A model generated the notes under the pieces. That model was not told where the DNA came from, searched no databases, and worked only from the letters and a program-made list of their open reading frames with translations. A stretch of 64,000 nucleotides of DNA from Candidatus Bathyarchaeota archaeon (GTDB lineage Archaea; Thermoproteota; Bathyarchaeia; Bathyarchaeales; Bathycorpusculaceae), in assembly GCA_963780185.1 (NCBI GenBank), contig CAWABA010000004.1, positions 32,001-96,000 on the forward strand. Reading direction: 5' to 3'. The position numbers and the translations under genes were made by a program. Shown piece by piece: positions 28,716 to 60,801 of this stretch (positions within the stretch are counted from its first letter, which is position 1; every line of letters begins with the position of its first letter).

Positions 28716-29831
28716 TTAGTCTTCTCTCCATTTGAAGAGTTTAACTGCCAGCGTGAAGACGACCCCTGTCATGACGGCTATGACTGCTAAGTCGATTATT
28801 GCTCCCATCGTGTTGCTGTAGACCATGACGTTGTTTAAGCCTTCGACGACGTAGAACAGCGGCAGCGCGTGCGCGAAGTTTTTCAGGTAGGTTGGCATGA
28901 GACTGATGGGGAAGAATGTGCCAGAGAGGAACATCATTGGGTAGGTAACTATGTTGCCGATTATGGCTGCTGTTTCGGGGGTTTTGGTGACTGTACCTAC
29001 GAGCATGCCTAAAGAGGCGAATAGCGTTGGTCCAATGAGCAGAAACGGTATGATTCCCACGGTTAGGTTAATGTTGGCGCCGAACACGTAGGTTCCGACT
29101 GCAACCATCAGCAGAAAACTTGCAAGTGTTACGAGCAGGTACAGCATGATTTTTGAGGTGAGCCACTCCATCTTTGTTAGCGGTGTAAGTGATAGTTGCT
29201 TGAAGAGTTTTGTTCTCTTGTACTCTGAGGAGATGTTAACCAGCGAGAACATTGGGCTGACCAGTATTGTGAAGCCTACAAGTCCTGGGATTAGGAAATC
29301 GACGTATTTTGTTTGGTGGATGTTAACGGTTGCTGCTGTAATGCCGATGACTGTTGTGCCGTTGAAGCGTTGCAGATTAAAGTAGTTGGTGTAGCCGTTG
29401 ACTGTGCTACTTACGATGCCACTGGTGCTCGACGTTGGGTTCCCGTAAACTGTTATGTTTATTGGGTTGCCTTGTAAGTAGTTGGAACTGAAGTTCGCTG
29501 GGATTATGATGCCATCTGAGGTTGAATGCGCTGATAGGTATTGTGAAAAGTTTTCTGATGGGTCAACTGTGATAACTCTGACTGTGCTGGAAGTGTTTAG
29601 GGCGTTGAGGAATTGGGCGGCTATGTTTGTTTGAGGTGTCACGAAGGGGCTTGTGTCTTGGTTTTGGGTATAAACGTTGATTGTCCCTGAACTGTTTCCT
29701 GAGAAGATAGTACCGAATATGAGGATTAGGATTATTGGGAAAACAAGAGCGAAGAAAAGTCCCAGTCTGTTTCTTAGGTAGCTGCGTCGGAAAACTTTGA
29801 AGTCTGATATTATTCTTTTTATGCTTGACGT
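28716..29831 (-). CDS. ABC-2 type exporter permease; probable start is ACG at 29831
   Basis: The frame is open 63 codons upstream of the listed GTG and encodes TM1 (RNRLGLFFALVFPIILILIFG); later YVDFLIPG and PMMFLSGTFFP. Confidence 0.9.
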   Translation of the reverse strand, partial: TSSIKRIISDFKVFRRSYLRNRLGLFFALVFPIILILIFGTIFSGNSSGTINVYTQNQDTSPFVTPQTNIAAQFLNALNTSSTVRVITVDPSENFSQYLSAHSTSDGIIIPANFSSNYLQGNPINITVYGNPTSSTSGIVSSTVNGYTNYFNLQRFNGTTVIGITAATVNIHQTKYVDFLIPGLVGFTILVSPMFSLVNISSEYKRTKLFKQLSLTPLTKMEWLTSKIMLYLLVTLASFLLMVAVGTYVFGANINLTVGIIPFLLIGPTLFASLGMLVGTVTKTPETAAIIGNIVTYPMMFLSGTFFPISLMPTYLKNFAHALPLFYVVEGLNNVMVYSNTMGAIIDLAVIAVMTGVVFTLAVKLFKWRED

Positions 29832-29833
29832 GT

Positions 29834-30796
29834 TTAGGGTCTCCTGTGGTTGGTTTTAACTTGGATGTATTGAGTAACTTCACCTTGCTCGTTGACTGCT
29901 CCGCTGACAAGTTTGACGAAAACGTCTTCGAGGCTGTCTTGCCGTGTCTGGATTGCACCCCAATCCATGTCTGACTGCTCAGCCGCCGCCAAAGCTGCAA
30001 GCGCATCAATCCTTTTTCGCAGGGACACGCAGACTTCGCTTCGGGTTGGGTCGTAGTCAACCTGTAACTCAGTGTTGGCTTTGATGTACTCTGCCAGTGC
30101 TGGACCGCCGTGGATTTGCAGGCGCTCACCTGAACCGTTCTCGGCAATGATTTCCTCTGTAGTTCCCAAAGCAACGATGTGCCCGTGGTTCATGATTGCA
30201 ACTCGGTCGGATAGCTGCTGTGCCTCGTCAAGGTAATGCGTGGTGAGGATGATTGTTTTGCCCTTGGCTTTCAAACCGCGGATAACGTCCCAGATGGCTC
30301 TTCTTGCGTTGGGGTCTAAGCCCGTTGTGGGTTCGTCGAGAAACAGCAGTTCCGGCTGGTTCACCAACGCCAACGCCAGACCTGTCTTCTGTTTCTGTCC
30401 ACCTGAGAGATTCTCAAAGTTTACGCCTGCTTTGTCCTCAAGGAGCACGTCGCGCAGTATGCTGTCAGGGTCTACTTTGACGTCGAATAGGTCAGCGTAG
30501 TAGACGATTGCTTCCCGAGGTGTCGCTTTCTCGATGAAACTGAACTCCTGCGGGATAACGCCTATTCTCTTGTGCAGTTCGTAGCCGTTTTTCCACGGGT
30601 CTAAGCCGAGAACTTTGGCGTCGCCGCCACTTCTTTCCCGCAGACCCTCAAGGATTTCTATGGTGGTGGATTTGCCTGCGCCGTTTGGCCCCAGTAAACC
30701 GAAGACTTCGCCCTGCTTAACCGTGAAGGATATGCCGTCGACCGCTTTCAAGTCGCCGTAACGCTTCTCAAGAGAGGAAACCTCTATCGGATTCAA
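29834..30796 (-). CDS. ABC exporter ATP-binding subunit
   Basis: GPNGAGKST, LSGGQKQ, LFLDEPTTGLD, TTHYLDEA. Confidence 0.95.
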   Translation of the reverse strand: MNPIEVSSLEKRYGDLKAVDGISFTVKQGEVFGLLGPNGAGKSTTIEILEGLRERSGGDAKVLGLDPWKNGYELHKRIGVIPQEFSFIEKATPREAIVYYADLFDVKVDPDSILRDVLLEDKAGVNFENLSGGQKQKTGLALALVNQPELLFLDEPTTGLDPNARRAIWDVIRGLKAKGKTIILTTHYLDEAQQLSDRVAIMNHGHIVALGTTEEIIAENGSGERLQIHGGPALAEYIKANTELQVDYDPTRSEVCVSLRKRIDALAALAAAEQSDMDWGAIQTRQDSLEDVFVKLVSGAVNEQGEVTQYIQVKTNHRRP

Positions 30797-30954
30797 TTAT
30801 TTCGCCTCCCAATGCAGTACGCGCCAGCTGTTGTTGTGGCTGCACCATTCCTGCCATGTGAACTCATGGAGGCACCGTCTAGAGCGGTTGAGGCGGCACC
30901 AGTTGTTCCACGAGTGTTTATGTGCGTTTTCTGTGATTGTTTTTGCGGATTCAT
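30793..30954 (-). CDS. Putative 53-aa peptide translationally coupled to the ABC ATPase
   Basis: ATG 30954 to TGA overlapping the TTG start of the ATPase (TTGA). Confidence 0.4.
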   Translation of the reverse strand: MNPQKQSQKTHINTRGTTGAASTALDGASMSSHGRNGAATTTAGAYCIGRRNN

Positions 30955-31006
30955 GCTTTTATCCCGAAAACAAAAATGGCAAAGTTTGATTAAAAGCTGG
31001 ACACTT

Positions 31007-31039
31007 GTTCATTTTATGAACCTGTTCACTTTGTGAACA
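31007..31039. promoter_or_regulatory. Tandem palindromic operator GTTCA-N5-TGAAC x2 in the divergent promoter
   Basis: GTTCATTTTATGAAC (31007-31021) and TGTTCACTTTGTGAACA (31023-31039). Confidence 0.7.
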
Positions 31040-31084
31040 AGCATTAACGTTAAAAACAAACGAGTTAAGATAGTATCTGCCAGC

Positions 31085-31747
31085 ATGGAAGTGGACACTA
31101 TTACGCAAGAAAACGATTTGGAGCCTGAAGGGCGAGACCCAAAACAGATTGCTCTCGCCGCATTTCGTTTCAGGGCTAGGCGAGGCATAGGCGTATTCTA
31201 CACCTCAGTCGCCCTCCCGCCGCTGCTTGCAAGCATAATGACTGCCTTACACACACCAGGCTACCTGACGTTAACTGGCATAGTGGTCTGCTTGATTATA
31301 GTTTGGATGGTTGCCCGAGCGGCTGGAATGAAAGGCTTTTACCACATGACCCACGTTATCGACTTATACAATGGTAAATTGGAAAATAAGAAAAGAGGAT
31401 TTCTCCACATGCTAAGAGGGCTACTTATTTTTGTTTTGCCCTTCGCAGTTTTCACGGTACTGAACATTTACGGTCTTAACTACTTAGCAGCTACAACAAT
31501 TTTCTGCTGGGTCGTCGTATGGGTCTTCTACCACATCTTTGTCACTTCACGGGCCTCAAAAGATGCTATTCTGCAGAGCCACATCGAAGATTGGCTTGCC
31601 TCGCCTTTGGCAATGCTCATTCTCATACTCGCGTCGCTCCCCGGTGTACCAAGTATCACTTTTGCCTTCGCAACTCCTGTTCTAATAGCCGCTGGCATCA
31701 AATCAATGTATGAAGCGCCCCAGGAGCTAGTACGAAGCAATGAGTAA
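31085..31747 (+). CDS. Hypothetical polytopic membrane protein
   Basis: About six hydrophobic helices; coupled to the downstream regulator. Confidence 0.75.
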   Translation: MEVDTITQENDLEPEGRDPKQIALAAFRFRARRGIGVFYTSVALPPLLASIMTALHTPGYLTLTGIVVCLIIVWMVARAAGMKGFYHMTHVIDLYNGKLENKKRGFLHMLRGLLIFVLPFAVFTVLNIYGLNYLAATTIFCWVVVWVFYHIFVTSRASKDAILQSHIEDWLASPLAMLILILASLPGVPSITFAFATPVLIAAGIKSMYEAPQELVRSNE

Positions 31748-32084
31748 ACCACCCAGCGACCACGACCAAGCCCTCTCGCAGTTCACTTCAGCAGGCGCAC
31801 TGTCGAGCTCCGTGCGGGTAGGCATCATGCTTGCGCTTCTCGGCGTTGAACGCATTACCTTCACCAACCTGCTGCTTGCCGTCAACGTCAGCAAAAGCTC
31901 GCTGAACAAAAGCATCAAGATTCTGGCGGATGAAGGCTACGTGAAAGAACGCTTCGGCTTCAAAAACACAGGCGGCCCACGCACCTTCGTACAGATTACC
32001 GATAAAGGAAAAACCGCCATCCGCACGCATCTGGAAACCATGCGCCGCCTAACCACAAAGTACCTGCCCGAAAGCCAACCATGA
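31740..32084 (+). CDS. MarR/ArsR-type winged-helix regulator (HTH_34-like)
   Basis: VRVGIMLAL, F..L...V.VSKSSL, L..EGYV, PRTFVQITDKGK. Confidence 0.85.
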   Translation: MSKPPSDHDQALSQFTSAGALSSSVRVGIMLALLGVERITFTNLLLAVNVSKSSLNKSIKILADEGYVKERFGFKNTGGPRTFVQITDKGKTAIRTHLETMRRLTTKYLPESQP

Positions 32085-32113
32085 AGTTTCAAGCTGTTCA
32101 GGCGTTTGATGCT

Positions 32114-32500
32114 TTAGATCCAGGCTGTTTCTATTTCTTTGATTTGCTTGAAGTGTGGGTCGTCTGTAATGCAGACTGCCTTGAGCATAAGTGCTGTGGC
32201 GGCGATTATGCTGCCACCCATGGACAAACGGTATTTGTGTCTTAACTCTGCGGAAATTTGGGCAATCTGCTCGTCAACAAGAACCACCTCAAATTCCCCC
32301 AGAATACCGGCAATTTGAGTTTTTACCGTTTCTCGGCTTCTCCTTGAAAGTGCAAAGTTATAGAATTCGTGGATTACAACAGCTGATATGTATCTACCTT
32401 TTCGGATATTTTGTGACCGCATTTTGTTTAGCAGCGACTTGTTTTCCGAGTAGTAATAGTCTACGAAGAACCTAGTGTCAAAGACTGCTTTGTTCGTCAT
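32114..32500 (-). CDS. vapC: VapC PIN-domain toxin
   Basis: VFDTRFF, VIHE, IIAATA, ITDDPHF; the usual Asp in LSMxDS reads Gly (LSMGGS). Confidence 0.85.
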   Translation of the reverse strand: MTNKAVFDTRFFVDYYYSENKSLLNKMRSQNIRKGRYISAVVIHEFYNFALSRRSRETVKTQIAGILGEFEVVLVDEQIAQISAELRHKYRLSMGGSIIAATALMLKAVCITDDPHFKQIKEIETAWI

Positions 32501-32828
32501 CTGGGTCTACTTCATGTCTCATTTTGTCAAGTTCTGCTTTCACTTCTTCGACTGTGGCCTGACCTGCGTAAGCTCCAGCCATATCCCAGAAGGTCTTCTT
32601 CCTCTTCAAAAGGACACCATCTCCTGTGTCGATTACCTCGAGCTTCGTGCCCTCTTCAATTTGGTATTTTCTGCGAAGCTTGACAGGAATCGTTGTCTGT
32701 CCTTTTTTTGTTACAACGACCACGACTTCCTTGACTTTGCTTCTTTTTGGAAAACTGATTTCCTCAAGCCTTATTTCCGATTCTTCCGTCAATGGGCTTT
32801 CTGCTGCTTTTGGCTCTAACTTTTCCAA
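32478..32828 (-). CDS. AbrB/MazE-family antitoxin (true start may be downstream)
   Basis: VTKKGQTTIPVKLRRKYQIEEG. Confidence 0.85.
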   Translation of the reverse strand: MEKLEPKAAESPLTEESEIRLEEISFPKRSKVKEVVVVVTKKGQTTIPVKLRRKYQIEEGTKLEVIDTGDGVLLKRKKTFWDMAGAYAGQATVEEVKAELDKMRHEVDPDDEQSSL

Positions 32829-32952
32829 CTTTTTTCGCCGTATTACTTTTAGTTTGTATTACCTTTAAGCGTTGCGGAATAACTTGCAAATTGCCGCCTG
32901 GGGGTGCGAAGGCTTTTTAGCGCAAACCACCCAATAACACACGTGAACCCAA

Positions 32953-33489
32953 ATGAGCCTACTTGACGCATCCGACTTCATCATCCAAAAGAAAATCCTC
33001 AGCGCTTACGAACACTACGATTTTTTGGACCTGCAAGGAAACAAACTGGCGGAAGCCGACGGCAGCCTCATCCAAATCCCACCCAAATTCGAAGTCAAAG
33101 ATACCCACCAAATTGAACTCCTCCACATGCAAGGCAAAACCCTCAGCCTCCACCACGAATTCACCCTCTATGGCACAACTGGGGAAGAGTTGGGAACCAT
33201 AAAAAAGAAAATCGCAACCTTTGGGCACCAAGAATACTGGATCGAAAAAAACGGGCAAGAATTCATGCGCATCTACGGCGACTTCACCTGCCACGAATAC
33301 CAAATGGAAACAGCCGGGCAATCCGTCGCCGCCGTACATAGGAAATGGGTTTCGCTGCGAGACCAAATGGGAGTCTCCATAACAGGCAACGTAGACCACC
33401 GAATAATCATAGGCGCAGTAATCGTAATAGAACATGTTGAAGCCACAGAACAACACTCTTCTTCGGGCACAGTCAACGTTAGATTTTGA
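32953..33489 (+). CDS. LURP-one-related/scramblase (Tubby C2) family protein
   Basis: IQKKILS, LGTIKKKI, GDF..HEY, V.RKWVSLRD. Confidence 0.85.
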   Translation: MSLLDASDFIIQKKILSAYEHYDFLDLQGNKLAEADGSLIQIPPKFEVKDTHQIELLHMQGKTLSLHHEFTLYGTTGEELGTIKKKIATFGHQEYWIEKNGQEFMRIYGDFTCHEYQMETAGQSVAAVHRKWVSLRDQMGVSITGNVDHRIIIGAVIVIEHVEATEQHSSSGTVNVRF

Positions 33490-33544
33490 AGCCATTGAAA
33501 ATATCAGCAGAATTAAATGATAAAACAACAAGAAGTAAAACCCT

Positions 33545-33728
33545 ATGGAAGAAATGACCTACCTAAACAAGGCAACAACCAAAAACGAATCCCTAAGAAC
33601 AACCATTCCAAGAAGCATAGTACAACAATTCGGCTTAACAGAATATGATATGCTTGAATGGATTCTAAAAGCGGAAGGTGGAGAACTGAGTTATTAGTGT
33701 GAAGCCTAGAAAAGGGGAAGTCAGGTAA
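33545..33728 (+). CDS. Small AbrB-like DNA-binding protein, frameshifted near 33689
   Basis: MEEMTYLNKATTKNESLRTTIPRSIVQQFGLTEYDMLEW; removing one base continues VISVKPRKGEVR-stop. Confidence 0.65.
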
Positions 33729-33730
33729 AA

Positions 33731-34366
33731 TTGACGAAGGCTATCTACCCACTAAATTTTGAGTGCCAAAAAAATGAAGCTGTATTCTATAATCATTTAC
33801 TTTATCCATCCTCCCTAAATAGGGCACGAATTGATGTACTTCAACGAATGGCACATTACTTTGAGCATTTAGACAAGAATGATGATAGGCTCCTCGTTTT
33901 AACGGCAGAATTATTGTTAGAAAATGCAATCGACAGATATTTGTCCGAATTAATGCCTTCTTATAAAAAGAATCTGAACGATAAGAAAGAATTTACTTTT
34001 TCCCTAAAGATTGCGGTAGCAAAATCACTCAAATTGTCACCACCACAGTTTTTTAACAGCGCAGATTTGATACGGAGAATAAGAAACCAATTTGTTCATC
34101 AGTTGGAAATCACAAAGTTTGAAATGCTTAACTCTAAGATACAGAAAGAAATAAGCGACAATTTGCTACTTTATATTCCGAAAGAGAAACTTGCTGAAAA
34201 AACATTGCAAGAACGTTTCAGGTCTCTTTCTTTGTATACTTTTTACGGCATGAACCGTCAAATTGAAAACGTGCATTCTCTTAATGTTTTCATAAGAGAT
34301 GATGGATTTCTGAGCAACTTGACAAAATTTTTTGCTCAAAAAGGAATATGTACCCCCACTAAGTGA
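33731..34366 (+). CDS. MtlR-like HEPN-domain protein
   Basis: DDR..VL....LLE, FTFSLKI..A, IRRIRNQFVH (R-x4-H); AT-rich. Confidence 0.65.
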   Translation: MTKAIYPLNFECQKNEAVFYNHLLYPSSLNRARIDVLQRMAHYFEHLDKNDDRLLVLTAELLLENAIDRYLSELMPSYKKNLNDKKEFTFSLKIAVAKSLKLSPPQFFNSADLIRRIRNQFVHQLEITKFEMLNSKIQKEISDNLLLYIPKEKLAEKTLQERFRSLSLYTFYGMNRQIENVHSLNVFIRDDGFLSNLTKFFAQKGICTPTK

Positions 34367-34480
34367 CGAAATGGCTAAAATTGGCATCCCTTGAAAGTTT
34401 ACGTGGAGAGCTATCCCTTAGAGACTTTACAGAACCCAAAATAGCAACCATTAAAAGTTAGAGTTGCAAAAATAAGCGGT

Positions 34481-34812
34481 TTATTTTTTGCGTATGTTGC
34501 ATTGGAGTACTTTGGGGCAGATTAGGCATTCGTCTTGTGTTAGCATGCTTTCTCCTGGCATGTGGAGTAGGCTGCTGTAGTGGGCGCATTTGGCGGTGAG
34601 TCGAAGACGGTTGGGTATTCGGTGGGTTTGACTTCGATGACTCGGTTTTTTTCGGTGATGAGGTTGAGTTTGCTCATGCAGTAGGGGCAGGCGAAGTGGG
34701 TTTGTCGTGGGATGGTGTTGGTGTCGGTTATGACGGTCGGCTTGTCAAATACTTTTTCGCATCCTTTGTAAGGGCATTTGAGTTTTTGCTCGTGCCCATG
34801 GAAAAGCTGCAC
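34481..34812 (-). CDS. Multi-zinc-finger small protein, frameshifted near 34594
   Basis: CPYKGC..F, CPYC; the shifted frame continues AKCAHY...DECLICPKVLQCNIRKK-stop. Confidence 0.7.
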
Positions 34813-35091
34813 GTCATTCGCCTCCCATGTTTATTTAACATCGAGTGTAGCAATATTTAATAAACTTTATCGACTAACGCTTCCTCCGTCTAATTGCACA
34901 ACAGAAATACACAAACGCCAAACCCCATAGCGACAAATGCAAAGCCTTTTAGACAATAACCAATCAATACCACATCACAGCCCGTTGAAATTATGCTATT
35001 TATGCAACATTTCACAACAATTATGAACAAATCTCAACCACCCTTATATCGCCTAACGACCCATCAATATCAAAAAAGAACGGTGAAAAAA

Positions 35092-35154
35092 ATGGAAAAA
35101 CCATCCCCAAAAAAAGCAGCCCCAAAAGAAGTCCTGTACTTCCCGCATGTATAG
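35092..35154 (+). CDS. Putative 20-aa micro-ORF MEKPSPKKAAPKEVLYFPHV
   Basis: TATA-like CTTATAT at 35043-35049 and GGTGA SD. Confidence 0.4.
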   Translation: MEKPSPKKAAPKEVLYFPHV

Positions 35155-35164
35155 GTGACATGAA

Positions 35165-35314
35165 ATGTTTGCGGAGACAAGTATGCCCATATTTGTGCTG
35201 TGCACAAGCTCGCTGACGGCAGCCTTCGTGTACTATAATCTGAAATACCGAAAGTTCCTCAAAGAAAACCCAAGCTTAACCAACCCATCCACAGAGCAAA
35301 ACAGAAGGAGGTGA
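35165..35314 (+). CDS. Putative 49-aa single-pass membrane peptide
   Basis: AGGTGA SD overlapping the previous stop; hydrophobic stretch then a basic tail. Confidence 0.45.
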   Translation: MFAETSMPIFVLCTSSLTAAFVYYNLKYRKFLKENPSLTNPSTEQNRRR

Positions 35315-35430
35315 ACCAGAAGACAAAACGAAAAAATGCAAACACATCAACAAGCCAATTCCGCGCCCACCCGCCCAACAGGAATTTGGCTTCCCCTTTT
35401 TCTTTTTTTTAACGTCAAAGTTTTTATCCT

Positions 35431-36021
35431 CTATGCGAGGACTTTATGGCAAGTGATATTCTTGGTTGAAATTTTGACGGGTAAGATGGTTTCAATAGTA
35501 ACGAAGACCATGTTTCCAATGGTGGATAAGGTGGTTTCTGAATTTGCGAGCTGATAGAAATCTGAAAAACGACTTGGAAGCTCTAAAAAGATGTTTTCCT
35601 CGGTTTTCTTGATGGGTACAACCTCTTTTGAAAGTGATGTGCCATTCCACTCCGCTATTTCCCGATCAGCAACCCCGACGGTTGACCTTGAAAGCGCATA
35701 AACAAATGCTTTTTCGCCCCAAAGGTCAAAGTTTACCATCTCGCGAGGTATCTCAACCTGATTAATCGGTCGTTTCTGGAAGTCCTTTGGGTAAACTGTC
35801 TTGACGAGCACACCTTTTTTCAAATTATGTTTTATTGAGGCTTTGTTTTCGGCTAATAGGCGGTTTACGCTTCCATCTATTTTGCCGTTTGTGCACTGAA
35901 GGTTTTCAGCGATTTCTGAAATTGTTATGCCGTGCTTCTTCATGATTTGCTGCAGGACGGCTGCGTCGGTTGATTGCCCTTTTTTGTGCATTACGACGGG
36001 TGCTCCTGAAAGACGGCTCAT
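35431..36021 (-). CDS. HTH-domain protein
   Basis: GITISEIAENLQCTNGKIDGSVNRL helix-turn-helix; C-terminal domain not recognised. Confidence 0.7.
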   Translation of the reverse strand: MSRLSGAPVVMHKKGQSTDAAVLQQIMKKHGITISEIAENLQCTNGKIDGSVNRLLAENKASIKHNLKKGVLVKTVYPKDFQKRPINQVEIPREMVNFDLWGEKAFVYALSRSTVGVADREIAEWNGTSLSKEVVPIKKTEENIFLELPSRFSDFYQLANSETTLSTIGNMVFVTIETILPVKISTKNITCHKVLA

Positions 36022-36125
36022 ATCATCACATTGCCTGTGGAATTGATGAGTGTTAGTTGCTAATAAGCGTTTAGAAGCTTCCAAACGACTATTAAATTAA
36101 CACAAAAAACCCATAAGTCTACGAC

Positions 36126-36374: not shown

Positions 36375-36415
36375 GGCAAACTGCCCTTTGAACCAACATT
36401 GTTGGGATTGGGGTG

Positions 36416-37229: not shown

Positions 37230-37275
37230 ACCGCATAATCCGAAGAGCATTTTTGGGTAAGGCTTAGCCTTGCAA

Positions 37276-38147: not shown

Positions 38148-38203
38148 AGTAGCCTTATATCGATTTGTATACATATTAAACTAATCGTTTACAGGTGTGT
38201 ACT

Positions 38204-38428
38204 ATGGAAACAGAGGTCCTGTCTGTCAGAGTTAAGAAAAGCCTCAAAAAAGAAGCAGAAAGGATGGGTATTGATATAAAAGCTGCTGTAGAAGAGCGTC
38301 TCGAGGAACTTGTGGAGGAAAAGAAAGCGAAAGCCAAAAGACGCGCGGAGGAGCTTCGTCGCGCTATGGGAAACGTTACTGTGGAGGAGTGGGTAAAAGA
38401 CGTCAAAGAGACAAGGCAAGAGATGTAA
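38204..38428 (+). CDS. vapB: VapB-type antitoxin (ribbon-helix-helix-like)
   Basis: TEVLSVRVKKSLKKEAERMGIDIK; EEWVKDVKETR. Confidence 0.85.
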   Translation: METEVLSVRVKKSLKKEAERMGIDIKAAVEERLEELVEEKKAKAKRRAEELRRAMGNVTVEEWVKDVKETRQEM

Positions 38429-38801
38429 ATACCTACTAGACGCATCCTCATTGTACCCCCTACTGCTTTCTGGAGAAGCCTTCGACTTTGAGCAATGTGC
38501 TGTAAGTACCCTGACGGAATATGAATTAGGCAACGTACTTTGGAAAGAAACTAGGAGAAAGAGAATCGACTTCAAGCAGGCATCGCAAACTTTTTCGGAT
38601 GCTCTGTCAGAGCTAAAGAAAATCGGCATCGGCAGTATAGACGATATTTTGGTATTAGCACTGGAGAGAAACCTTACCTTTTACGATGCCTCATATGCTT
38701 ACCTCGCTGAAAGGGAAGATATGAAACTAGTTACCGAAGATGTTGATTTGATTAAGAAATGTAAGTGTGCCATCCACACAAAAGAGATGGAGCCAACTTA
38801 G
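38400..38801 (+). CDS. vapC: VapC PIN-domain toxin; probable start is ACG at 38400
   Basis: KYLLDASSLYP lies upstream of the first TTG; YELGNVLWK, LTFYDASY, LVTED. Confidence 0.85.
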   Translation, partial: TSKRQGKRCKYLLDASSLYPLLLSGEAFDFEQCAVSTLTEYELGNVLWKETRRKRIDFKQASQTFSDALSELKKIGIGSIDDILVLALERNLTFYDASYAYLAEREDMKLVTEDVDLIKKCKCAIHTKEMEPT

Positions 38802-38820: not shown

Positions 38821-38897
38821 TGGAGCCTCGAGCGGGCTTCGGTCCCGCGGCCTGCTGCTTACGAGGCAGCCGCTCTACCAGGCTGAGCCATCGAGGC
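38821..38897 (-). tRNA. tRNA-Thr(CGU), CCA encoded, atypical T-loop ACCGAAG
   Basis: GCCTCGA/TCGAGGC acceptor stem, U73; anticodon arm GCTGC-CTCGTAA-GCAGC. Confidence 0.95.
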
Positions 38898-46389: not shown

Positions 46390-46558
46390 AACAGTTCCCA
46401 GAAATGAAAATGCAGGCAGGTTATTTCTGCCTTTAGCTTAGCCGCAGAAATTTTGGCTTCACTGCGTCGTTTACTCGTCATTTTTGAAAAATGAGGAAAA
46501 TACCCCATGAATCATCGCCACAACATAATTCGCAGACCCGCTTGCCCTGATTATCGCC

Positions 46559-46748
46559 GGTTTTTATTTTTTCGTACCCAGCCTCCCTACGGTTTTCTAG
46601 AGGATCCAAATAGGGACATCTAGATGAGCCAAATAGACACAAAAACCACCCGCAGGGCACCTCGTCTATGTTTGAATGCAACGTCTACCCCCTCCGTCAA
46701 CTAGATGCACCAAATATGCTCCAACTATGAAACAACATACTTCAACAT
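46559..46748 (-). repeat. ~190-bp non-coding repeat, copy 2 (inverted)
   Basis: Reverse complement aligns end-to-end with 39007-39194. Confidence 0.95.
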
Positions 46749-47078
46749 GGGAAAGGATGCGCAAAATTGTATGTTGAATTGTTGTTTTTAGCATGTAAAT
46801 CGCTGTTTTTTCATGGAAGAACCGATGAAAAAGGAAGTATGTTTCGCCTTTTTTGGGTCAGCGTTATTTGACGTTTTCTCACAGCGTAAGCTCGAAGCCG
46901 TCGCCTCACATCATCCCGCCATCAATGTGGGTCTGCGGAAATTTATTCATTTTGTTGCTGAAAAGCAACCGAGGAAAAACTGGTTTTCCCTTTGGCCTTG
47001 ACATTTCTTGCGGTGGTATGTGGGAGTTGGCTTTAATAATTTCTTTTCCCATTGCGAGGTATTCAAGAGGTCACTTAA

Positions 47079-47903
47079 ACGTTCGCAATTGGCCACTTTG
47101 CCTTGGGATACTTAGCTGGGAAGGGTTCTTCGAAGCTTGCCAAAGTCAAAGTGAACTTGCCCCTCCTGCTTGCAGCTTCAGTGCTCCCCGACGTAGACCT
47201 CCTGCTAAGGTTCCTAACGCACAGGGGACTAACACACTCACTAATCATCATAACCGCGCTGATGATTCCGTTTTTTGTGGTTTACCGAAAACAAGCCATA
47301 CCATACTACGCGGCGTTGCTATCCCACATTCTCATAGGCGACTTTTTCACTGGAGGAATCCAACTTTTTTGGCCTCTATCTCAAACAAAGTTCGGCATTC
47401 TAAACCTCAACGTGTCTAGCTGTGCCGACGTGACAGTGGAGCTTGCCCTGTTCTTGGTAACTTTACCCATTATGTATAAACTGGGCGATTTGCAGACTCT
47501 TCTAAAACCGCACAATAAGAACTGGGTTCTAGTAATTCCTTTTGTCGCAGTTCTAGGGCCTATGCTTTCCCTTGTTAAAAACTCGATGATAACGCCTCTG
47601 AGTCTTCTTTTTGTTCCAAGCTTGTTCTATCTGGGGCTGTTTGCTTTTTCCATCCTTGTTGATCTAAGAAGTACGCTCAATAAGACTGAGTGCAAGCTAG
47701 ATTCAGGCAACACTTCTCTAACAAGTTCTGCTAAGCTTCTCTGCAATGAAAACAGGAAAGATAAGCGTGCAAGCGTTGTTTCTACGTTAATTGGTTTACG
47801 AGTTCTTGGGCTCTTGTGTCGAGGTTTTCGGTTTGCCCAATTTTCACTACGACGGCATCGGACAGTTTACCGTTGGTTCCGAGTGCTGACACAGAGTTCT
47901 TAA
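47079..47903 (+). CDS. Membrane metal-dependent hydrolase (YdjM/DUF457-like); probable start is ACG at 47079
   Basis: TAA-ACG-TTC-GCA-ATT-GGC-CAC gives MFAIGH; SVLPDVD, HRGLTHS, SHILIGD, LFWP; the 3' end overlaps the opposite gene, so the true stop may be earlier. Confidence 0.85.
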   Translation, partial: TFAIGHFALGYLAGKGSSKLAKVKVNLPLLLAASVLPDVDLLLRFLTHRGLTHSLIIITALMIPFFVVYRKQAIPYYAALLSHILIGDFFTGGIQLFWPLSQTKFGILNLNVSSCADVTVELALFLVTLPIMYKLGDLQTLLKPHNKNWVLVIPFVAVLGPMLSLVKNSMITPLSLLFVPSLFYLGLFAFSILVDLRSTLNKTECKLDSGNTSLTSSAKLLCNENRKDKRASVVSTLIGLRVLGLLCRGFRFAQFSLRRHRTVYRWFRVLTQSS

Positions 47904-48782: not shown

Positions 48783-49040
48783 ATGCAAGAAACTTTAAAC
48801 CCGCCTGCACCTTCAAGCAGCCAAACGGTAATTACAGTAAAAATACCCGCAAAAATGAAAAAAGAAATGAAGAAAGCGGGTATTAACTGGAGTGAATACA
48901 TTCGGCAATGCATTCAAAAGAAAATCAATCAGCAGAAAATGAAAGAAGCATCCGATGAGCTCGATGAAATACGGAAAAGCACGAAGCCAACATCAACAGA
49001 AGAAATAGTAGCTTGGATTAGAGAAGACAGGGAGAGATAA
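48783..49040 (+). CDS. vapB: VapB-type ribbon-helix-helix antitoxin
   Basis: VITVKIP..MK, INWSEYIR..I, WIREDRER; GCATATAC...GTATATGC inverted repeat at its promoter. Confidence 0.85.
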   Translation: MQETLNPPAPSSSQTVITVKIPAKMKKEMKKAGINWSEYIRQCIQKKINQQKMKEASDELDEIRKSTKPTSTEEIVAWIREDRER

Positions 49041-49046
49041 AGTTCA

Positions 49047-49478
49047 ACGCTGCTTTACGTGCTAGATGCTAGCGTCGCAGTTAAATGGGTATTATCAGGC
49101 GAACCTTTAGAAGAAAACGCCACTAAGCTCAAGGCCGACCTAATGTCTGGAAATGCTGAACTATGTGCTCCTTCTTTCCTAATACAAGAAATAACAAATG
49201 CAATTTGGCGTGCTATTAAACTGAGAAGAATCACTCCTGAAAAAGCAGAAAGAGCCCTAATACGACTTGACGATTTAGCGATTACTTTTTATGATTTTAA
49301 CTGGAAAGACGCCTGTGAAGAATTGGTTATAGCGACAGAGCTAGACTTGACAATTTACGATGCCGCATATATTTTCCTTTCCAGAAAACTAAATGCCAAA
49401 CTAATTACGGCTGACGAAAAAATGTACCAAAAAGCAAAAAGCACTTTTCACGTACTTCACCTTAAAGATTACCTGTAA
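49047..49478 (+). CDS. vapC: VapC PIN-domain toxin; start may be ACG 49047 rather than GTG 49059
   Basis: (M)LLYVLDASVAVKW, QEITNAIW, LTIYDAAY, LITADE. Confidence 0.85.
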   Translation, partial: TLLYVLDASVAVKWVLSGEPLEENATKLKADLMSGNAELCAPSFLIQEITNAIWRAIKLRRITPEKAERALIRLDDLAITFYDFNWKDACEELVIATELDLTIYDAAYIFLSRKLNAKLITADEKMYQKAKSTFHVLHLKDYL

Positions 49479-54283: not shown

Positions 54284-54460
54284 GTAGGCAACTAAGAAAC
54301 CCTCTTTTTTGGTTTTCGCCTTTCTATCGAGTTTACATCATTAGCGCTTCCATTAAGTCGCCTGTTGAGGGAGACGAAATGGGTGGGAAGAACAAATAAT
54401 TTAAAATACCCCTCTTGTTTAATGTAGCCATTAACACGGAGAAGTAGGGCGCAAACAACT

Positions 54461-54664
54461 ATGAGTGAACAAGGCGACACATTCTGGGTATCGCTTGCCG
54501 AAAAATTCTTCGGCTTGATAGTAATAGTAATCGGCGGAGTACTGCTCTACTTGACAGCTACAAGCACCAGCCAACTTGGGCAGTTCAGCCTGTTTTTCGG
54601 GGTAATAAGCGCAATTTTGCTTGCCATCGGCTTGTTTATGCTGCTTGTTAGACCTTCAGAATAG
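54461..54664 (+). CDS. Small two-helix membrane protein
   Basis: 67 aa with two hydrophobic helices. Confidence 0.65.
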   Translation: MSEQGDTFWVSLAEKFFGLIVIVIGGVLLYLTATSTSQLGQFSLFFGVISAILLAIGLFMLLVRPSE

Positions 54665-54807
54665 CATATTTCACCATTATTTCTTCAGTTAAAACTCCAC
54701 GTGCGGGCAAATCTAAGCTTGACGGCTTTTGCTTCAGTTTCCAGCATTCATTTATAAACTATAAAAACATTAAACTCATGGATAATTTGTAACGGAAGCG
54801 AAAAACA

Positions 54808-56595
54808 ATGCCCACACGCCAACCCATTGTATGTGTCTTAGGACACGTAGACGCAGGCAAAACCTCACTTCTTGACGAACTACGAAAAACCAGCGTGCAA
54901 GCCCGAGAAGCCGGAGGAATGACCCAGCACATCGGCGCAAGCTTCTTCCCCGTTGAAACACTCAAACAGCTCATCGGGCCGCTGCTGTCTAACTTCAAAA
55001 GTGGCATTGAGATTCCGGGGTTGCTGATTGTTGATACGCCTGGGCATGAAGCTTTCACGAATCTGAGGCGTAGAGGCGGAAGCGTAGCCGACATCGCCAT
55101 CTTAGTTGTTGATGTTTTGCGGGGTTTTGAGGCGCAAACCTACGAATGTATAGAAATCCTAAAGGCACGTAAAACACCGTTCCTCGTAGCCGTCAACAAG
55201 ATTGACCGTGTTCCCGGTTGGAAGCCGCAGCAGTCGATGCCTTTTTTGCAGTCCTACGCGTCCCAATCGAGCTTTGTTCGTGAGGAATTGGATAACCGTC
55301 TGTACAATATTATGGGTTTGTTTAGTCGGCAAGGTTTCAAAACCGACCGCTTTGACCACATCCGAGACTTCACAGTAAACGTGGCTTTGGTGCCGACCAG
55401 CGCCAAAACAGGCGAAGGCCTATCCGAGCTAGTTATGGTTCTGGTTGGGTTAAGCCAGCAGTTCCTTAAGAAACGGTTGCAGACCACTGAAGGCGCAGCT
55501 AAAGGCTCCGTTCTCGAAGTAAAAGAGGAACCAGGCTTAGGCTTAACGCTAAACACGATTATTTACGACGGCACCCTGCATAGAGATGACTTGATCGTTG
55601 TCGGCGGACGCAACGGACCGATTTCTGCTCGCGTACGGGCGATTTTGGTGCCGAAACCACTGGATGAAATGAGGGATCCCCGAGACAAATTCACGCCAGT
55701 AGAATGCGTTTTTGCCAGCGCAGGAGTAAAAATTGTTGCACCCGATTTGGATGGAGCTTTGGCTGGTGCGCCCCTGTTTGCAGTGCCCACAGGCGAAGAC
55801 CCTGCAAAGTACGCTAAACTTATCACTGAAGAAATAGGCAGAATCCGAATTGCCAAAGAGATTGAAGGCGTCATCGTTAAAGCTGACACGCTGGGTTCAT
55901 TGGAGGCAATGGCTGAGATTTTGAAGGCAAACAACGTGCAAGTGCGTATTGCCGACGTCGGCGACATCAGCAAACGTGACGTAATCGAAGCATCAGTAGT
56001 GAAGACCCGTGAGCCACTGGTGGGCGCAATCTTGGCTTTTGGCGTAAAAACCTTACCTGACGCCGCGGAAGAAGCAGCAGCTAACGGCGTCCCAATCTTC
56101 AACCAACCCATCATCTACAACCTCATAGACGCGTATCTGCAGTGGGCTAAAAACAAACGTGAAACGAAGAGTGAAGCTGAATTTGAAGCGTTGGTTAAGC
56201 CGGGCAAAGTTACGGTTTTGCCTAACTGCATTTTCCACAGGGCCAAACCATTGGTCGTGGGTGTGGAAGTGCTGGCTGGACGGTTAAAGCCGAAGTATGG
56301 GCTTATGCGCAAAGAAGACGGAAGCGACCTAGGCGAGGTTGACCAGATTCAGGACCAAGGCAAAGCAGTAGCCGAAGCTAAGGTAGGAATGCAGGTGGCG
56401 ATTTCAATGGACAAACCCATTGCAGGCAGGCACGTTTTCGAAAAAGACGTGTTATACGTGAAGGTGCCCGAGAAAGACGCACAGGCGCTGTTGACGACGC
56501 ATGCCGATGATTTGACGGCTGACGAGCAAGAACTGCTCAAAGAATACGTCAATTTGATGCGCAAAAAGATTCCCTTCTGGGCAGGCGTCATGTAA
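54808..56595 (+). CDS. infB: Translation initiation factor aIF5B (IF-2)
   Basis: RQPIVCVLGHVDAGKT, EAGGMTQHIGA, DTPGHEAF, NKID, DTLGSLEA. Confidence 0.98.
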   Translation: MPTRQPIVCVLGHVDAGKTSLLDELRKTSVQAREAGGMTQHIGASFFPVETLKQLIGPLLSNFKSGIEIPGLLIVDTPGHEAFTNLRRRGGSVADIAILVVDVLRGFEAQTYECIEILKARKTPFLVAVNKIDRVPGWKPQQSMPFLQSYASQSSFVREELDNRLYNIMGLFSRQGFKTDRFDHIRDFTVNVALVPTSAKTGEGLSELVMVLVGLSQQFLKKRLQTTEGAAKGSVLEVKEEPGLGLTLNTIIYDGTLHRDDLIVVGGRNGPISARVRAILVPKPLDEMRDPRDKFTPVECVFASAGVKIVAPDLDGALAGAPLFAVPTGEDPAKYAKLITEEIGRIRIAKEIEGVIVKADTLGSLEAMAEILKANNVQVRIADVGDISKRDVIEASVVKTREPLVGAILAFGVKTLPDAAEEAAANGVPIFNQPIIYNLIDAYLQWAKNKRETKSEAEFEALVKPGKVTVLPNCIFHRAKPLVVGVEVLAGRLKPKYGLMRKEDGSDLGEVDQIQDQGKAVAEAKVGMQVAISMDKPIAGRHVFEKDVLYVKVPEKDAQALLTTHADDLTADEQELLKEYVNLMRKKIPFWAGVM

Positions 56596-56635
56596 AGGCG
56601 AACCGTTCTTGATTTAGCTTTGAAAAGGTATTCAG

Positions 56636-57154
56636 TTATTTTTTGAAGAATTTTTTGAGCACCAAGTCTAGATTGAAGAGGTAGTCTTCTTCTGGTCTAA
56701 GGTACGTTTGAACCAGCAACAAAGCCCGTTCTCTGATTTGGTCTTCTGAAACCTGTCCCTTGTTGATGCAGGTTTCTATGTCTTGCATATCTCTCGCGTT
56801 TAGTCTGCCAATTTTTGTTACGATTATGTCGAGCGGTTGAAGGGCTCTGAGCGATATGCGGCTAAAATCTTTTATTTTGATGCTCCGTTCCAAGTAATCG
56901 CTCGGTAGTGTCTGGCAGAAAATACGTCCATCTATCCATCGGTCGACTTTGTAGCCGGGTGGATTGTTTTTCAGAGCTAGCTCAAAGTATATCATGTCGC
57001 TGCTTGGAATTGTGAAGTCAATATCCAATGTAGAGGGCTTTAGGTCAAGCAGAGTCATTGCTGTCCCGCCTACAGCAACAAGAGTGATCTTCTTGGTCAG
57101 GTCCTCGTCTAACACGCTTAGAAAATCGAAGAGCGCAGTTTTGTCACAGGGCAT
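56636..57154 (-). CDS. DUF6036/AbiEii-like nucleotidyltransferase
   Basis: VGGTAM...K.ST.DID, D..VTK..R...RD..DI. Confidence 0.8.
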   Translation of the reverse strand: MPCDKTALFDFLSVLDEDLTKKITLVAVGGTAMTLLDLKPSTLDIDFTIPSSDMIYFELALKNNPPGYKVDRWIDGRIFCQTLPSDYLERSIKIKDFSRISLRALQPLDIIVTKIGRLNARDMQDIETCINKGQVSEDQIRERALLLVQTYLRPEEDYLFNLDLVLKKFFKK

Positions 57155-58196
57155 TGTATAGCTCCAACTTTTGTCTTATGCTTGATTCATCTGCAGGAAG
57201 TTCTTTTTGATCAATAGCCTCTAAAAACTTGATGGTTCTGTCAATTTCTGGTTTTGAAATGGTTTGCCTTAATATTTTTAGTATCCCGAGCAATCTTGAC
57301 GACGTCAGGTACTTTTGGCTCAAGAAAAACAGGAGGTTGCTGTTGAAATTGTTTTTTGCAAGAATAACTGCTGCGGCGTCTATTCCTCGTGCCTCTTCTC
57401 TGAGAAGCAAAGAGACAGTAATGTATTCAACACAGATTTTTCTTCCTTGAGCAAAAATGGCGCCGAACTCGCTGTACCCAAATCTATTGAGATTAAACGT
57501 CAAGTCTGAATCAGAGATGTTAAGGAGTTTTGTTTCCGAGCTAATAGTTCGAATTTGGTTTTTTTGAGCGATTTCCTTAATCTCGCTCCAGAATGCTTGA
57601 GGATTATAGAGAGCAATTTGTTTGCTTAAAGCTTCTCTAACTGGATTAATTTCATCCGACGTTAATAGATCATAAAAATCGCGCTTGTCAAGAATTAAGT
57701 TGTTGATTTTGAGGTTATTTTTCTTCTGCAGGTTTTGCATTTCTTTACAGAGCGCAATGGTCTGTTTTGGAAAATCAGTTGTTTCGCGAAGCAGAAAGAG
57801 CAATTCAATTCGGTTAGCTTTTATGTTCCTTAATGGATTGAATGCAATAATTGATTTTACGGAGCCCCTTTCAGTCAAGAATTTATCCATTTCAATAAAG
57901 AAGGAGTAAAGGTTGGTTCTCTTGGACAGAAACTCCAATTTCTTTTCTATTTCCATTTCGGCTAACGTGTCGATTAGAAGGTAATTTTGAAAATCCAGGC
58001 TAATGCTCGAGGACCTGCCTATCGGCTCTATATCGAGTAAGCCTTCGCTTTTCAGTTTCTGCAATTTTTTATAAATATTTGCGTAATAGGCTGATCCGTA
58101 GTTGTCCTTGATTTTTTCAGTGAGTTGGTTGATTGATAAAGAATCACCTATGCTCGATGATATTGTTTCTAAGATTCGAAGTGTAGGTGTATCCAT
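57144..58196 (-). CDS. Winged-helix protein with a degenerate nucleotidyltransferase-like domain and a helical C-terminal domain
   Basis: SINQLTEKI...YANIYKKLQKL..EGLL; IELLFL; coupled to the downstream nucleotidyltransferase; AT-rich. Confidence 0.7.
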   Translation of the reverse strand: MDTPTLRILETISSSIGDSLSINQLTEKIKDNYGSAYYANIYKKLQKLKSEGLLDIEPIGRSSSISLDFQNYLLIDTLAEMEIEKKLEFLSKRTNLYSFFIEMDKFLTERGSVKSIIAFNPLRNIKANRIELLFLLRETTDFPKQTIALCKEMQNLQKKNNLKINNLILDKRDFYDLLTSDEINPVREALSKQIALYNPQAFWSEIKEIAQKNQIRTISSETKLLNISDSDLTFNLNRFGYSEFGAIFAQGRKICVEYITVSLLLREEARGIDAAAVILAKNNFNSNLLFFLSQKYLTSSRLLGILKILRQTISKPEIDRTIKFLEAIDQKELPADESSIRQKLELYNAL

Positions 58197-58338
58197 TCTA
58201 ATGTTTTCTTCCCACCGCCATTATAGCAAATTCAATATATATTAAATTTACTATAACATCATAGCATTTTTACTATAATTTAAGCCAAAATTGGTTTAAG
58301 AGACGTCGGGTGAGATATTAAATTAACCAATGATGCGG

Positions 58339-58935
58339 CTAAGGCTTCTTTTTATAGCACATCGTTAGCATGCCGTCGATGCAGAAAGGCGACAGCTCCC
58401 CCTCCGAATCCTGCCTAATACACAGCGGCTTCATATCGCATTTCGGGCACACCGCACTTCTAAGCTGAGCCCCCGTGGTTGCCAGGAGACTTTTTTCTTT
58501 AAGCGTCTCGTAAGCGAACTTTAGGTATTTGCCTTCAGCTATGCGCGGCACGTCATATTTGGCTGCTTCGACGCCTGCGTCAAGCGCGAAGTACTCGTAG
58601 AGCCTTCTTGCACCCTTCGACGAGTTGCAGCTTTTACAGATCCAAACAAGATTCTTCTCAACATTAGGACCATGATACTTCTGCGGCAACAAATGCTCCA
58701 AAGTCAAATTTGCAGTCGCACCACAGAAACCGCACAAGTTCCCCGTTTGCCGTTCTTTGATGTACTCGCGGATTTCGTTCCAGCTAATGTCACCCGCCTT
58801 GAGCTCTTTGAACTTATTCATGATAAAACCGTAATCTTTCTTTCCCATGCCAGCAGAGTCAGCGATAATTTTCGCGTACTGCCAATAAATCAAGTCCCTA
58901 ACAGTTTTAACCACAGCTGGAGGCATAATGCTCAC
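58339..58935 (-). CDS. HNH endonuclease
   Basis: CGFCG, LTLEHLLP...G.N...NLV..CKSCNSSKG; additional C-terminal Cys cluster. Confidence 0.9.
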   Translation of the reverse strand: MSIMPPAVVKTVRDLIYWQYAKIIADSAGMGKKDYGFIMNKFKELKAGDISWNEIREYIKERQTGNLCGFCGATANLTLEHLLPQKYHGPNVEKNLVWICKSCNSSKGARRLYEYFALDAGVEAAKYDVPRIAEGKYLKFAYETLKEKSLLATTGAQLRSAVCPKCDMKPLCIRQDSEGELSPFCIDGMLTMCYKKKP

Positions 58936-59061
58936 CTGTAAGTTCTATGAAAGATAACTTTGTTATTAGAGCAGGTTTACTTTTTAGGGTTTACTGAAAT
59001 CCAACCTTTTTCTTTGCAAAAGACCGCTTAACTGAATGTTAGAAAGGGTCATTGATTTTTG

Positions 59062-60420
59062 TTAGTGGCTTTTTCGGTGCCTTGCATAGAGCAGCACCAA
59101 TAACGAAGCAATTGCAGCCAACAAAATCGCCACAACAGTTACGAAAACAGTTGCTGGCACGGAAAAAGCTAAGGGACCAGCGGGTTTTGTGGTTGATGCT
59201 GAAGTCGAGGAAGGCGTCGGGCTGGAAAAAGAGAGTGCTGGAGAGGGACTTGGAGAAGCTGTTGGGATAGGTGTAGAAGTTTGAGTAGGAATTGTTGGCG
59301 CTTGGGGGTTTGGCGCGGTTAAGAACGGAACAAATGTTACTGTGCCTAAGTTGAAATCGTCCTTAGAGTCACGAATGGACTGGCTGATGACTGATTGATT
59401 AGTTGTTCCCCACCAGTTATTGGCTGCATTAATATTGTTCGGTGTTTCACAGTCAATCAAGTATCTGGATATTTCCTCAAAGTTGTTGTTAGCAAGAGTC
59501 AGATTACCTGTCATAGTTGAATCTACCAAGATTCCAGTAGAACTGCCTACGACCGTGTTGTCTTGAATGGTGATGTCTGATTGAGGTCCTGAGGCTTTTA
59601 TTCCAACTAAGGAAGACTGAATTAGCAGTAGGTTATTTTGGATTGTCGCTTCTCCTGAAGCAATAATACACATATTATAATTTCCTGTAATTGTGTTGCC
59701 GCTGACAAATGATACGTCGGTTTCATCCAAAGCGTACCGGGAACCTAAGGCAATTGCAAAGTTGCCGCCTCCCGTTATGGTGTTGTCTGTTATTGTTGGT
59801 GAACCAGCTGAGACTGTGACTCCGGAGCCTAATGTGTTTCCAGAAATAGATGGAGACCCACCCCACTCCAAGATGGAAAGATGAGAATTATCGGAGATTA
59901 CCGAAGAACCGCCTTCAATCAGTAACGCCGCTCCTTGAGTGTTTGTTATTTTGGAAGAGGCGTCTATCGCGATTTGGGTCGAGTTAAAAACCGCGTTGCT
60001 AATTATGCAGCCTGATCCATCTTGTTCATTCCAGCTGGTACTCGATGGGTAGAAGGTTATTCCGGCTGGAGTAAATGGACCGAAAGGATTATTCACATCC
60101 ATAGAGCTGCCGCCGCTTATTTGGATTGGATTTGCGTTTGTACCTATAGCGATAAGGGTTCCGTTAACTTGCATGTAATAACTGTTCAGGTTCACCATGG
60201 CTCCAGGTTGGATTGTCAATGTAATGCCTTGAGCGACAGCAACCGGGCCAGTGAGACTGTACGGACTACCACCTCGGGTCCAAATAGCATCAGAAGATAT
60301 TATGCCATTCTCAGTTGTCCCATTTTGAGCCAACCCGTACGGCATGGACCCAACCAGTGCAATTCCTGCTAAGACAGCCAAAATGAGAAGAATCCCCAAG
60401 GTCTTGTGGAAATGGCTCAT
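59062..60420 (-). CDS. Surface protein with right-handed parallel beta-helix repeats, a P/S/T linker and a C-terminal membrane anchor
   Basis: Signal peptide; WT..GSPY, LTIQPG, I..N.I repeats, A.NNWWGT. Confidence 0.85.
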   Translation of the reverse strand: MSHFHKTLGILLILAVLAGIALVGSMPYGLAQNGTTENGIISSDAIWTRGGSPYSLTGPVAVAQGITLTIQPGAMVNLNSYYMQVNGTLIAIGTNANPIQISGGSSMDVNNPFGPFTPAGITFYPSSTSWNEQDGSGCIISNAVFNSTQIAIDASSKITNTQGAALLIEGGSSVISDNSHLSILEWGGSPSISGNTLGSGVTVSAGSPTITDNTITGGGNFAIALGSRYALDETDVSFVSGNTITGNYNMCIIASGEATIQNNLLLIQSSLVGIKASGPQSDITIQDNTVVGSSTGILVDSTMTGNLTLANNNFEEISRYLIDCETPNNINAANNWWGTTNQSVISQSIRDSKDDFNLGTVTFVPFLTAPNPQAPTIPTQTSTPIPTASPSPSPALSFSSPTPSSTSASTTKPAGPLAFSVPATVFVTVVAILLAAIASLLVLLYARHRKSH

Positions 60421-60504
60421 AATCCAGTCTGAGGAATTGATGGCGATAAAAGCATTCTCGTAAATTTATCTTGACTAAGTTAAGTCAAGGTTTCTTGACT
60501 GGAA

Positions 60505-60801
60505 TTAGCCGCCGCCTACTGGAGGCAGAATCGCTAATACATCCCCGTCCCGAAGCTCCGTTTCCAAGCCGTTCATGGTTGAGGTGCTGTTTCCGTTGAC
60601 GAGGAACTGCAAGAAACTTTTAGGCTGCCCAGTTGTGCCGTCATAAACGTAATCCTTGAAGGCAACGCCATATTTTTCTGAGAGCATTTTGAGGACAGAG
60701 TCAACCGTTGCCTTCGTGCCCGTGGGGAGAGTTAGGGTTTCTTCTCTTTTGTTCACGATTTCCCGCAGGGAAGTGAAGAAGCGAACTTTAACCTCGACCG
60801 T
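60505..60801 (-). CDS. moaD: MoaD/ThiS/SAMP ubiquitin-like sulfur carrier; probable start is ACG at 60801
   Basis: (M)VEVKVRFFTSLREI upstream of the listed GTG; LVNG, T.L.DGD.LAILPPVGGG. Confidence 0.9.
   Translation of the reverse strand, partial: TVEVKVRFFTSLREIVNKREETLTLPTGTKATVDSVLKMLSEKYGVAFKDYVYDGTTGQPKSFLQFLVNGNSTSTMNGLETELRDGDVLAILPPVGGG

Follow-up and report, generated by a model that had tools for sequence, protein, structure and literature searches.

Probable lineage-wide use of ACG and other near-cognate start codons in Bathyarchaeia

Background

In eukaryotes and their viruses translation can begin at ACG, as in mammalian cells and on the P/C mRNA of Sendai virus, presumably with the initiator Met-tRNA; such starts are less efficient than AUG and set the expression level. 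Among the rare non-canonical starts of bacteria, the AUU start of infC, the IF3 case, is a weak start behind a Shine-Dalgarno (SD) motif, and regulation is exerted there by a start-checking factor. In the present work we analyzed five genes that appear to begin at ACG in a 64,000-nucleotide stretch of DNA (the window; positions 32001-96000 of contig C4, CAWABA010000004.1) from a soil archaeon of the Candidatus Bathyarchaeota. Its genome (GCA_963780185.1, here G000; G001, G003, G122 and similar labels denote related genomes) comprises 2.75 Mb in 13 contigs. The five genes encode an ABC permease, a YdjM-family membrane hydrolase, a MoaD/SAMP-like protein and two VapC proteins. Comparison with related genomes suggests that near-cognate codons behind SD motifs are probably used for initiation in a minority of genes throughout the lineage, ACG being the most frequent and CTG, ATA, ATC and ATT also occurring, with an attenuating effect. 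ATG, GTG and TTG are referred to as canonical starts.

The proposed starts resemble the eukaryotic ones in that ACG would be read as a weak start setting expression. The eukaryotic starts, however, use scanning and Kozak context, whereas those considered here stand 6-10 nt behind an SD-like motif, belong to an archaeon and include a codon fixed in a conserved replication-associated gene. With the infC-type starts they share the weak start behind an SD motif, and by analogy with infC and IF3 a start-checking factor could regulate such genes. ATA, ATC, ATT and CTG, all seen here, are also members of NCBI translation table 11 (TTG, CTG, ATT, ATC, ATA, ATG and GTG in the Biopython list). On the other hand, ACG is outside table 11, and autoregulation is a feature of the infC case.

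Within the archaea, a ribosome profiling study of Haloferax volcanii assigned about 30% of its putative sites of alternative initiation to near-cognate codons, and the authors set these aside (PMC7261190). As described there, those are unverified alternative sites, whereas here the near-cognate codon appears to be the main, conserved start of known genes. In Sulfolobus extracts aIF1 reportedly discriminates against non-canonical starts (PMC8211752). A search of one literature library, with supplementary files outside its reach, found no publication that treats ACG as a start codon in Bathyarchaeia or other archaea. Near-cognate initiation as such is already known; what would be new is an archaeon whose main, conserved start is a codon that the accepted prokaryotic set lacks.

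Results and discussion

ACG codons of the window genes and their orthologues

The five ACG codons had been proposed as starts by an earlier reading of the DNA made without database searches (the sequence-only reading). When the letters were read and the stop-to-stop frames translated, ACG was found at the proposed position in all five genes, and the five reading frames were intact, with profile matches along their length. The same reading had placed the family-typical N-terminus 5' of the first canonical start; profiles bore this out for the permease, ydjM, moaD and vapC2, whereas for vapC1 the alignment to the PIN profile did not extend over the N-terminus. No canonical start precedes the conserved block at these family-defined N-termini, leaving aside codons shortly downstream in vapC2 and ydjM that are considered below.

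All five ACGs have an SD-like G-rich motif at a working distance, 6-10 nt upstream (GGAG, GAGGT, GGTGA, GGAGGAG and GGGAGAG), so the earlier statement that the flanking contexts share no obvious motif did not hold. A search with a 16S 3'-end motif gave no match, and the anti-SD sequence was assumed.

The ydjM-family gene (47079-47903, plus strand) was read from the ACG at 47079-47081, directly preceded by a TAA (47076-47078), and position 4 of PF04307 falls on residue 4. Besides G000, 4 of 14 relatives (G003, G002, G009 and G001) carry this ACG, and in all five genomes the interval from the preceding stop to the ACG is free of canonical starts. The GAGGT motif (47067-47071), 7 nt 5' of the ACG, was the same in all five and kept its spacing, and the codons after the ACG showed synonymous changes among them. 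The other relatives, which are more distant, had ATG (5), TTG (4) or TCG (1) at this position, one distant paralogue having been dropped from the comparison. The TCG belongs to the G013 homologue (L040), where it stands behind AAGGAGG with no canonical start upstream in frame.

The moaD/SAMP-like gene (60505-60801, minus strand) was read from the ACG at 60801-60799, the third codon after a TGA, and positions 1-88 of TIGR01687 align with residues 4-98; the next canonical start is a GTG 15 codons downstream. The GGTGA motif (60808-60812, minus strand) lies 6 nt 5' of the ACG and is identical in G122. ACG was found in three genomes, two of them without a canonical start: G122, whose protein is 85% identical, reads TGA-GTC-GAA-ACG-GTT and like G000 has no canonical start, and G003 reads ACG-GTG. 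An ATG is aligned to this ACG in 2 of 14 relatives.

Both vapC genes encode PIN domains and follow a vapB gene. vapC1 (38400-38801, plus strand), read from the ACG at 38400-38402, overlaps the end of vapB1 (38180-38428) and has a TAA two codons upstream of the ACG. The SD-like GGAGGAG (38383-38389) is situated 10 nt 5' of the codon and is kept as GAGGAG or GAGGAA in homologues. In seven close homologues the codon was ACG in three and ATG in four, and the codon before it was ATG in three; ahead of the catalytic Asp, neither the gene of G000 (AAG-ACG) nor that of G001 (CTG-ACG) offers a canonical start. vapC2 (49047-49478, plus strand) was read from the ACG at 49047-49049, the third codon after the TAA of vapB2 (49038-49040), and position 1 of the PIN profile falls on residue 4. 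Its SD-like GGGAGAG (49030-49036), 10 nt 5' of the ACG, is also present in G003, where the homologue has ACG at the same codon.

The alignment of orthologues, which had been proposed as a check, thus showed ACG conserved across species for ydjM, moaD and vapC2, as well as for dnaG outside the window. We consider the ACG starts of ydjM and moaD well supported and those of vapC1 and vapC2 plausible.

The ACG of dnaG and near-cognate codons at other conserved starts

In dnaG of G000 (C10:113293-114456) the 145 codons that follow the upstream stop include no canonical start. If residues are numbered from an ACG behind GGAG(T)G, position 1 of the equivalog NF003108 falls on residue 10, and the first canonical start is 135 codons further. 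This ACG was found at 19/19 loci of the genus and, in the order's other families, at 3 of 11 loci, the remaining 8 having ATG. In a species-representative collection it was present at all 79 evaluable Bathyarchaeia species loci (80 fetched, one incomplete), which stem from many different series of metagenome-assembled genomes; 69 of the 79 have no canonical start upstream in frame before the ACG, and G009, G008 and G033 lack even a table 11 start in the interval from the stop to the ACG. Since the ACG is perfectly retained while distant relatives have ATG, the weak codon itself seems to be maintained, and the purpose of its retention is likely low expression. Bathyarchaeia-type dnaG genes (81-91% identical) also occurred under bacterial or Methanocella names (L221, L240 and L282), probably as mis-binned contigs.

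The phenomenon is not limited to ACG, since CTG, ATC and ATA stand at other conserved starts. The start of rpS11 shares bases with the stop codon of the gene before it (YTGA) and was CTG in 11 and TTG in 13 of 24 loci of the genus; in other families it was ATG in 5 of 6. A cdvB-like gene compared in 12 genomes had ATC (7), ATA (2), ATT (1) or TTG (1), with one unclear case, at a position 7 nt behind an invariant GGAGGG, a spacing kept as it is in ydjM. In purF, also in 12 genomes, the codon two before the catalytic Cys was ATA in 7, ATG in 3, ACG in 1 (G014) and ATT in 1, and mobB and an abrB-family gene have ACG in G000 against TTG or ATG in G003. The placement at the family-defined N-terminus also held for dnaG, rpS11, purF, mobB and abrB. 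For dnaG, ydjM, moaD, purF and rpS11 the codon was either conserved or interchanged only with other starts.

These codons bear on the idea that the mRNA is edited from C to U ahead of translation, so that ACG becomes AUG and CUG becomes UUG. A single C-to-U change would make canonical exactly ACG and CTG, which are also the two most frequent non-canonical codons, and ACG-to-AUG editing has a precedent in plant organelles, in rpl2, psbL and ndhD, where a genomic ACG likewise occupies a conserved start position (PMC9845219). Editing of this kind, however, cannot repair the ATA, ATC and ATT found here at equivalent conserved starts, and if it operated one would expect ATG in the DNA to be neutral and frequent, whereas dnaG has ACG at 79/79 loci. 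The archaeal case is, moreover, known from DNA alone, in contrast to that of the organelles. We consider editing quite improbable as the explanation; to our knowledge, C-to-U editing that creates start codons has not been described in archaea.

Initiation at near-cognate codons would account for ATA, ATC and ATT as well as ACG. The proposal of a lineage-wide relaxed choice of start codon, with ACG as a start, is supported by dnaG, by the five genomes with ACG in ydjM, by the interchange of ACG, ATG, ATA and ATT in purF and by the equal rates of non-canonical starts in G000 and G003 given below.

Start codons compared across two genomes

G000 was compared with G003, which belongs to the same genus, by means of stop-to-stop open reading frames (ORFs) and reciprocal best hits, and the 1505 pairs showing a third-position substitution bias were kept. 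A strict table recorded the G000 codon at the first canonical start of G003, the residues just after it being required to be conserved. The codon was canonical in both genomes at 562 of 639 positions. G000 was non-canonical without an alternative upstream or within 5 codons at 13/639 positions (CTG 3, ACG 2, others 1 each), and the reverse comparison gave 13/615 for G003 (ACG 4, ATA 2, TTA 2, others 1 each), making ACG the commonest single non-canonical codon (6/26 over both directions). The rate of about 2%, which has no outside baseline from a control lineage, looks higher than expected; that it is equal in G000 and G003 argues against an error specific to G000.

A second screen was restricted to genes in which a conserved block lies 5 or more codons ahead of the first canonical start; it further required an SD match, a near-cognate codon and a start-like codon in the partner. 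It was passed by 10/84 genes in G000 (ACG 4, CTG 3) and by 8/71 in G003 (ACG 5), compared with 1/84 and 1/71 for decoys placed 30 codons into these genes. The passes thus exceed chance, although these numbers are indicative only, since the filters miss true cases (dnaG, purF and rpS11).

The 84 genes of 1159 (7%) whose conserved block begins 5 or more codons ahead of the first canonical start were not taken as a rate, because they include conserved leaders and frameshifts such as that in nadE. Recoding or read-through of stop codons was also considered for the start-less ORFs and rejected: in-frame splits by a single stop were rare, occurred about equally in the two genomes (19 in G000, 22 in G003) and favoured no stop codon.

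Evidence against near-cognate starts and the explanations it would favour

Several findings weigh against near-cognate initiation and are gathered here. Some are general. When ATG decays by transition it gives ACG and ATA most often even without function. SD motifs are weak genome-wide in G000, and ACG 5' of the first canonical start occurred behind strong SDs in 18/418 cases (4.3%) against a background of 2.9%, which is no clear enrichment; because SD motifs are weak here, enrichment based on SD motifs alone was set aside as evidence. Of the genes of G000 that passed the second screen, nadE proved to be a frameshift artefact.

Others concern the position of the start. In vapC2 a GTG at 49059, 4 codons downstream of the ACG, is a possible alternative start, as the sequence-only reading had recognized in grading this gene as weaker; G003 also has a nearby GTG, at a different position. 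In ydjM the next canonical start is a TTG only 8 codons downstream. In moaD, where the ACG lies behind GGTGA and the profile reaches the N-terminus, 12 of 14 relatives begin at the following codon (GTG 10, TTG 1, ATG 1), where G000 has GTC.

These observations would fit translation beginning elsewhere, at a downstream canonical codon or an upstream ATA, ATC, ATT or CTG, the ACG being kept for another reason, for instance as a Thr codon or as part of an RNA element. Two public dnaG products do begin upstream of the ACG, at ATC (P0001) and at ATA (P0040), and moaD of G000 has an ATC 2 codons upstream. Such upstream codons are not conserved, however, being absent for dnaG in G009, G008 and G033, and the moaD ATC is GTC in G122, where ACG and GGTGA are kept; they also lie 5' of the SD motif or within it. 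Downstream starts would remove 135 codons of DnaG, the first transmembrane segment (TM1) of the permease, beta-1 of MoaD and the conserved His of YdjM, and more distant orthologues have ATG exactly at the ACG position. A start elsewhere is unlikely in our judgement, and initiation at the ACG itself agrees better with the conserved N-termini.

The remaining points concern the permease site and the quality of the assembly. The ABC-2 family permease gene (28716-29831, minus strand) was read from the ACG at 29831-29829, with positions 3-346 of PF12698 on residues 24-363. An in-frame stop lies 9 codons upstream, leaving 8 open codons ahead of the ACG; a GTG 63 codons downstream is the first canonical start. 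The SD-like GGAG (29841-29844, minus strand), 9 nt 5' of the ACG, is identical in G122, which has ATG although its protein is 95% identical and the 60 nt upstream are nearly identical. ATG was in fact found at the homologous codon in 13/13 relatives (11/11 loci of the same genus, G046 and G122) and in the paralogue of G000 itself. The permease ACG is thus unique to G000 among 14 genomes and not conserved across species; the public contig with A at 29830 represents a diverged relative and not the same strain. This ACG may have arisen very recently, by a T-to-C change, or may be an error. If real, it may be tolerated, since it lies 2 nt past the TAA of the ATPase gene (29836-29834, minus strand), a context for re-initiation.

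The upstream ABC ATPase gene (29834-30796, minus strand) has a TTG start directly after an in-frame stop. The permease orthologue of G003 (C1 2122613-2123697) is broken into three overlapping frames, which indicates that G003 also carries frameshifts.

Frameshift-type splits numbered 168 in G000 and 36 in G003, by a crude count that includes shadow ORFs. Public short contigs that otherwise match the window show single-base indels relative to it at 32855, 35272 and 46688, so the quality of the G000 assembly is imperfect. A search of sequencing runs listed no RNA run containing the stretch and two DNA runs, with shares of 0.11 and 0.09 of it; their contigs covered, of the five sites, the vapC1 ACG. 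The fully matching contigs listed (about 2.4 kb) had no substitution, including over this ACG, and a contig of run X2 was identical to the window over 38307-38570.

An assembly or base-calling error in which T was read as C, or a recent inactivating mutation in decaying G000 genes, would account for an ACG that is confined to one assembly and accompanied by an ATG paralogue, and the many breaks of the frameshift type in G000 (hdrA-like, enolase and nadE) and the indels speak in its favour. A variant confined to a single assembly was found at the permease site only. The other four sites and that of dnaG recur in independent genomes, non-canonical starts are as frequent in G003, the matching contigs carry no substitutions, and all five frames are intact. 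Error accordingly comes into question at the permease site only, where the ACG is unique to G000. Even for this one site we hold error or decay to be a minor possibility with little probability, and as an explanation of the phenomenon as a whole it is scarcely credible.

Relative to G003, one-base frameshifts were seen just after the start in the hdrA-like gene (C9 227408-229853, plus strand), in enolase (C4 98021-98636, plus strand) and in nadE (C11 115889-116737, minus strand). Correction of the indel at 46688 of the window would join the minus-strand ORFs 46478-46684 and 46666-46857, and a frameshift there is probable.

Initiation factors and tRNAs

SUI1/aIF1 was present in 41/41 genomes searched. 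The initiator-type tRNA-Met of G000 (172217-172317) has the anticodon CAU, begins with AGCGGGG and is interrupted behind the anticodon loop by an intron of 22 nt. It was found by aragorn with introns allowed; without that option aragorn missed it and reported 41 tRNAs, and a pattern search for the initiator anticodon arm gave no match. Inspection of the initiator tRNA, one of the checks proposed beforehand, thus returned a normal CAU anticodon. These searches showed neither a loss of aIF1 nor an initiator-type tRNA that would pair perfectly with ACG. The tRNA-Thr(CGU) encoded beside vapC1 shows no initiator features and resembles a normal elongator; its gene (38821-38897, minus strand) lies directly 3' of vapC1 and is the sole part of that neighbourhood matched by contigs of run X3.

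In the aIF1 alignment (L325-L354) 18 sequences of the genus have GGT-S/H-K and DGM or DGL, and 12 from other families have GGTAK and DGI, DGL or EGI. Residues specific to the genus were rejected as the cause, since the use of near-cognate codons extends to genomes beyond it.

Proposed mechanism

We infer from the DNA and its conservation that initiation takes place at ACG, that the first residue is Met and that attenuation is the purpose. The ordinary initiator tRNA with its CAU anticodon would pair with ACG with a single mismatch at the second position. The mismatch would make initiation weak, and ACG would act as a built-in attenuator. Low-dosage genes would suit such attenuation, among them dnaG, the vapC toxin genes, second or distal genes of operons, moaD, mobB, ydjM and cofactor carriers.

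Conclusions

If near-cognate starts are used as proposed, most public gene calls of these genes would have wrong N-termini in a lineage abundant in sediment and soil. Public dnaG products illustrate the problem: the ATC and ATA at which P0001 and P0040 begin are unconserved and lie upstream of the SD motif, P0004 (366 aa) is 22 residues short, and P0011 is extended into the promoter region. Prokaryotic annotation assumes ATG, GTG or TTG, and a lineage that routinely used ACG would need a start model of its own. It would also offer a natural system for asking by what means aIF1, aIF2 and the 30S subunit of archaea assess a start codon, a matter investigated until now mainly in yeast and bacteria.

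On balance we lean towards the view that Bathyarchaeia have evolved a relaxed start check in which ACG is a regular and selected start, fixed at dnaG in at least 79 species, and in which a few percent of genes begin at near-cognate codons that hard-wire low translation. A weak start conserved on dnaG and on toxin genes would point to hard-wired translational attenuation in archaea.

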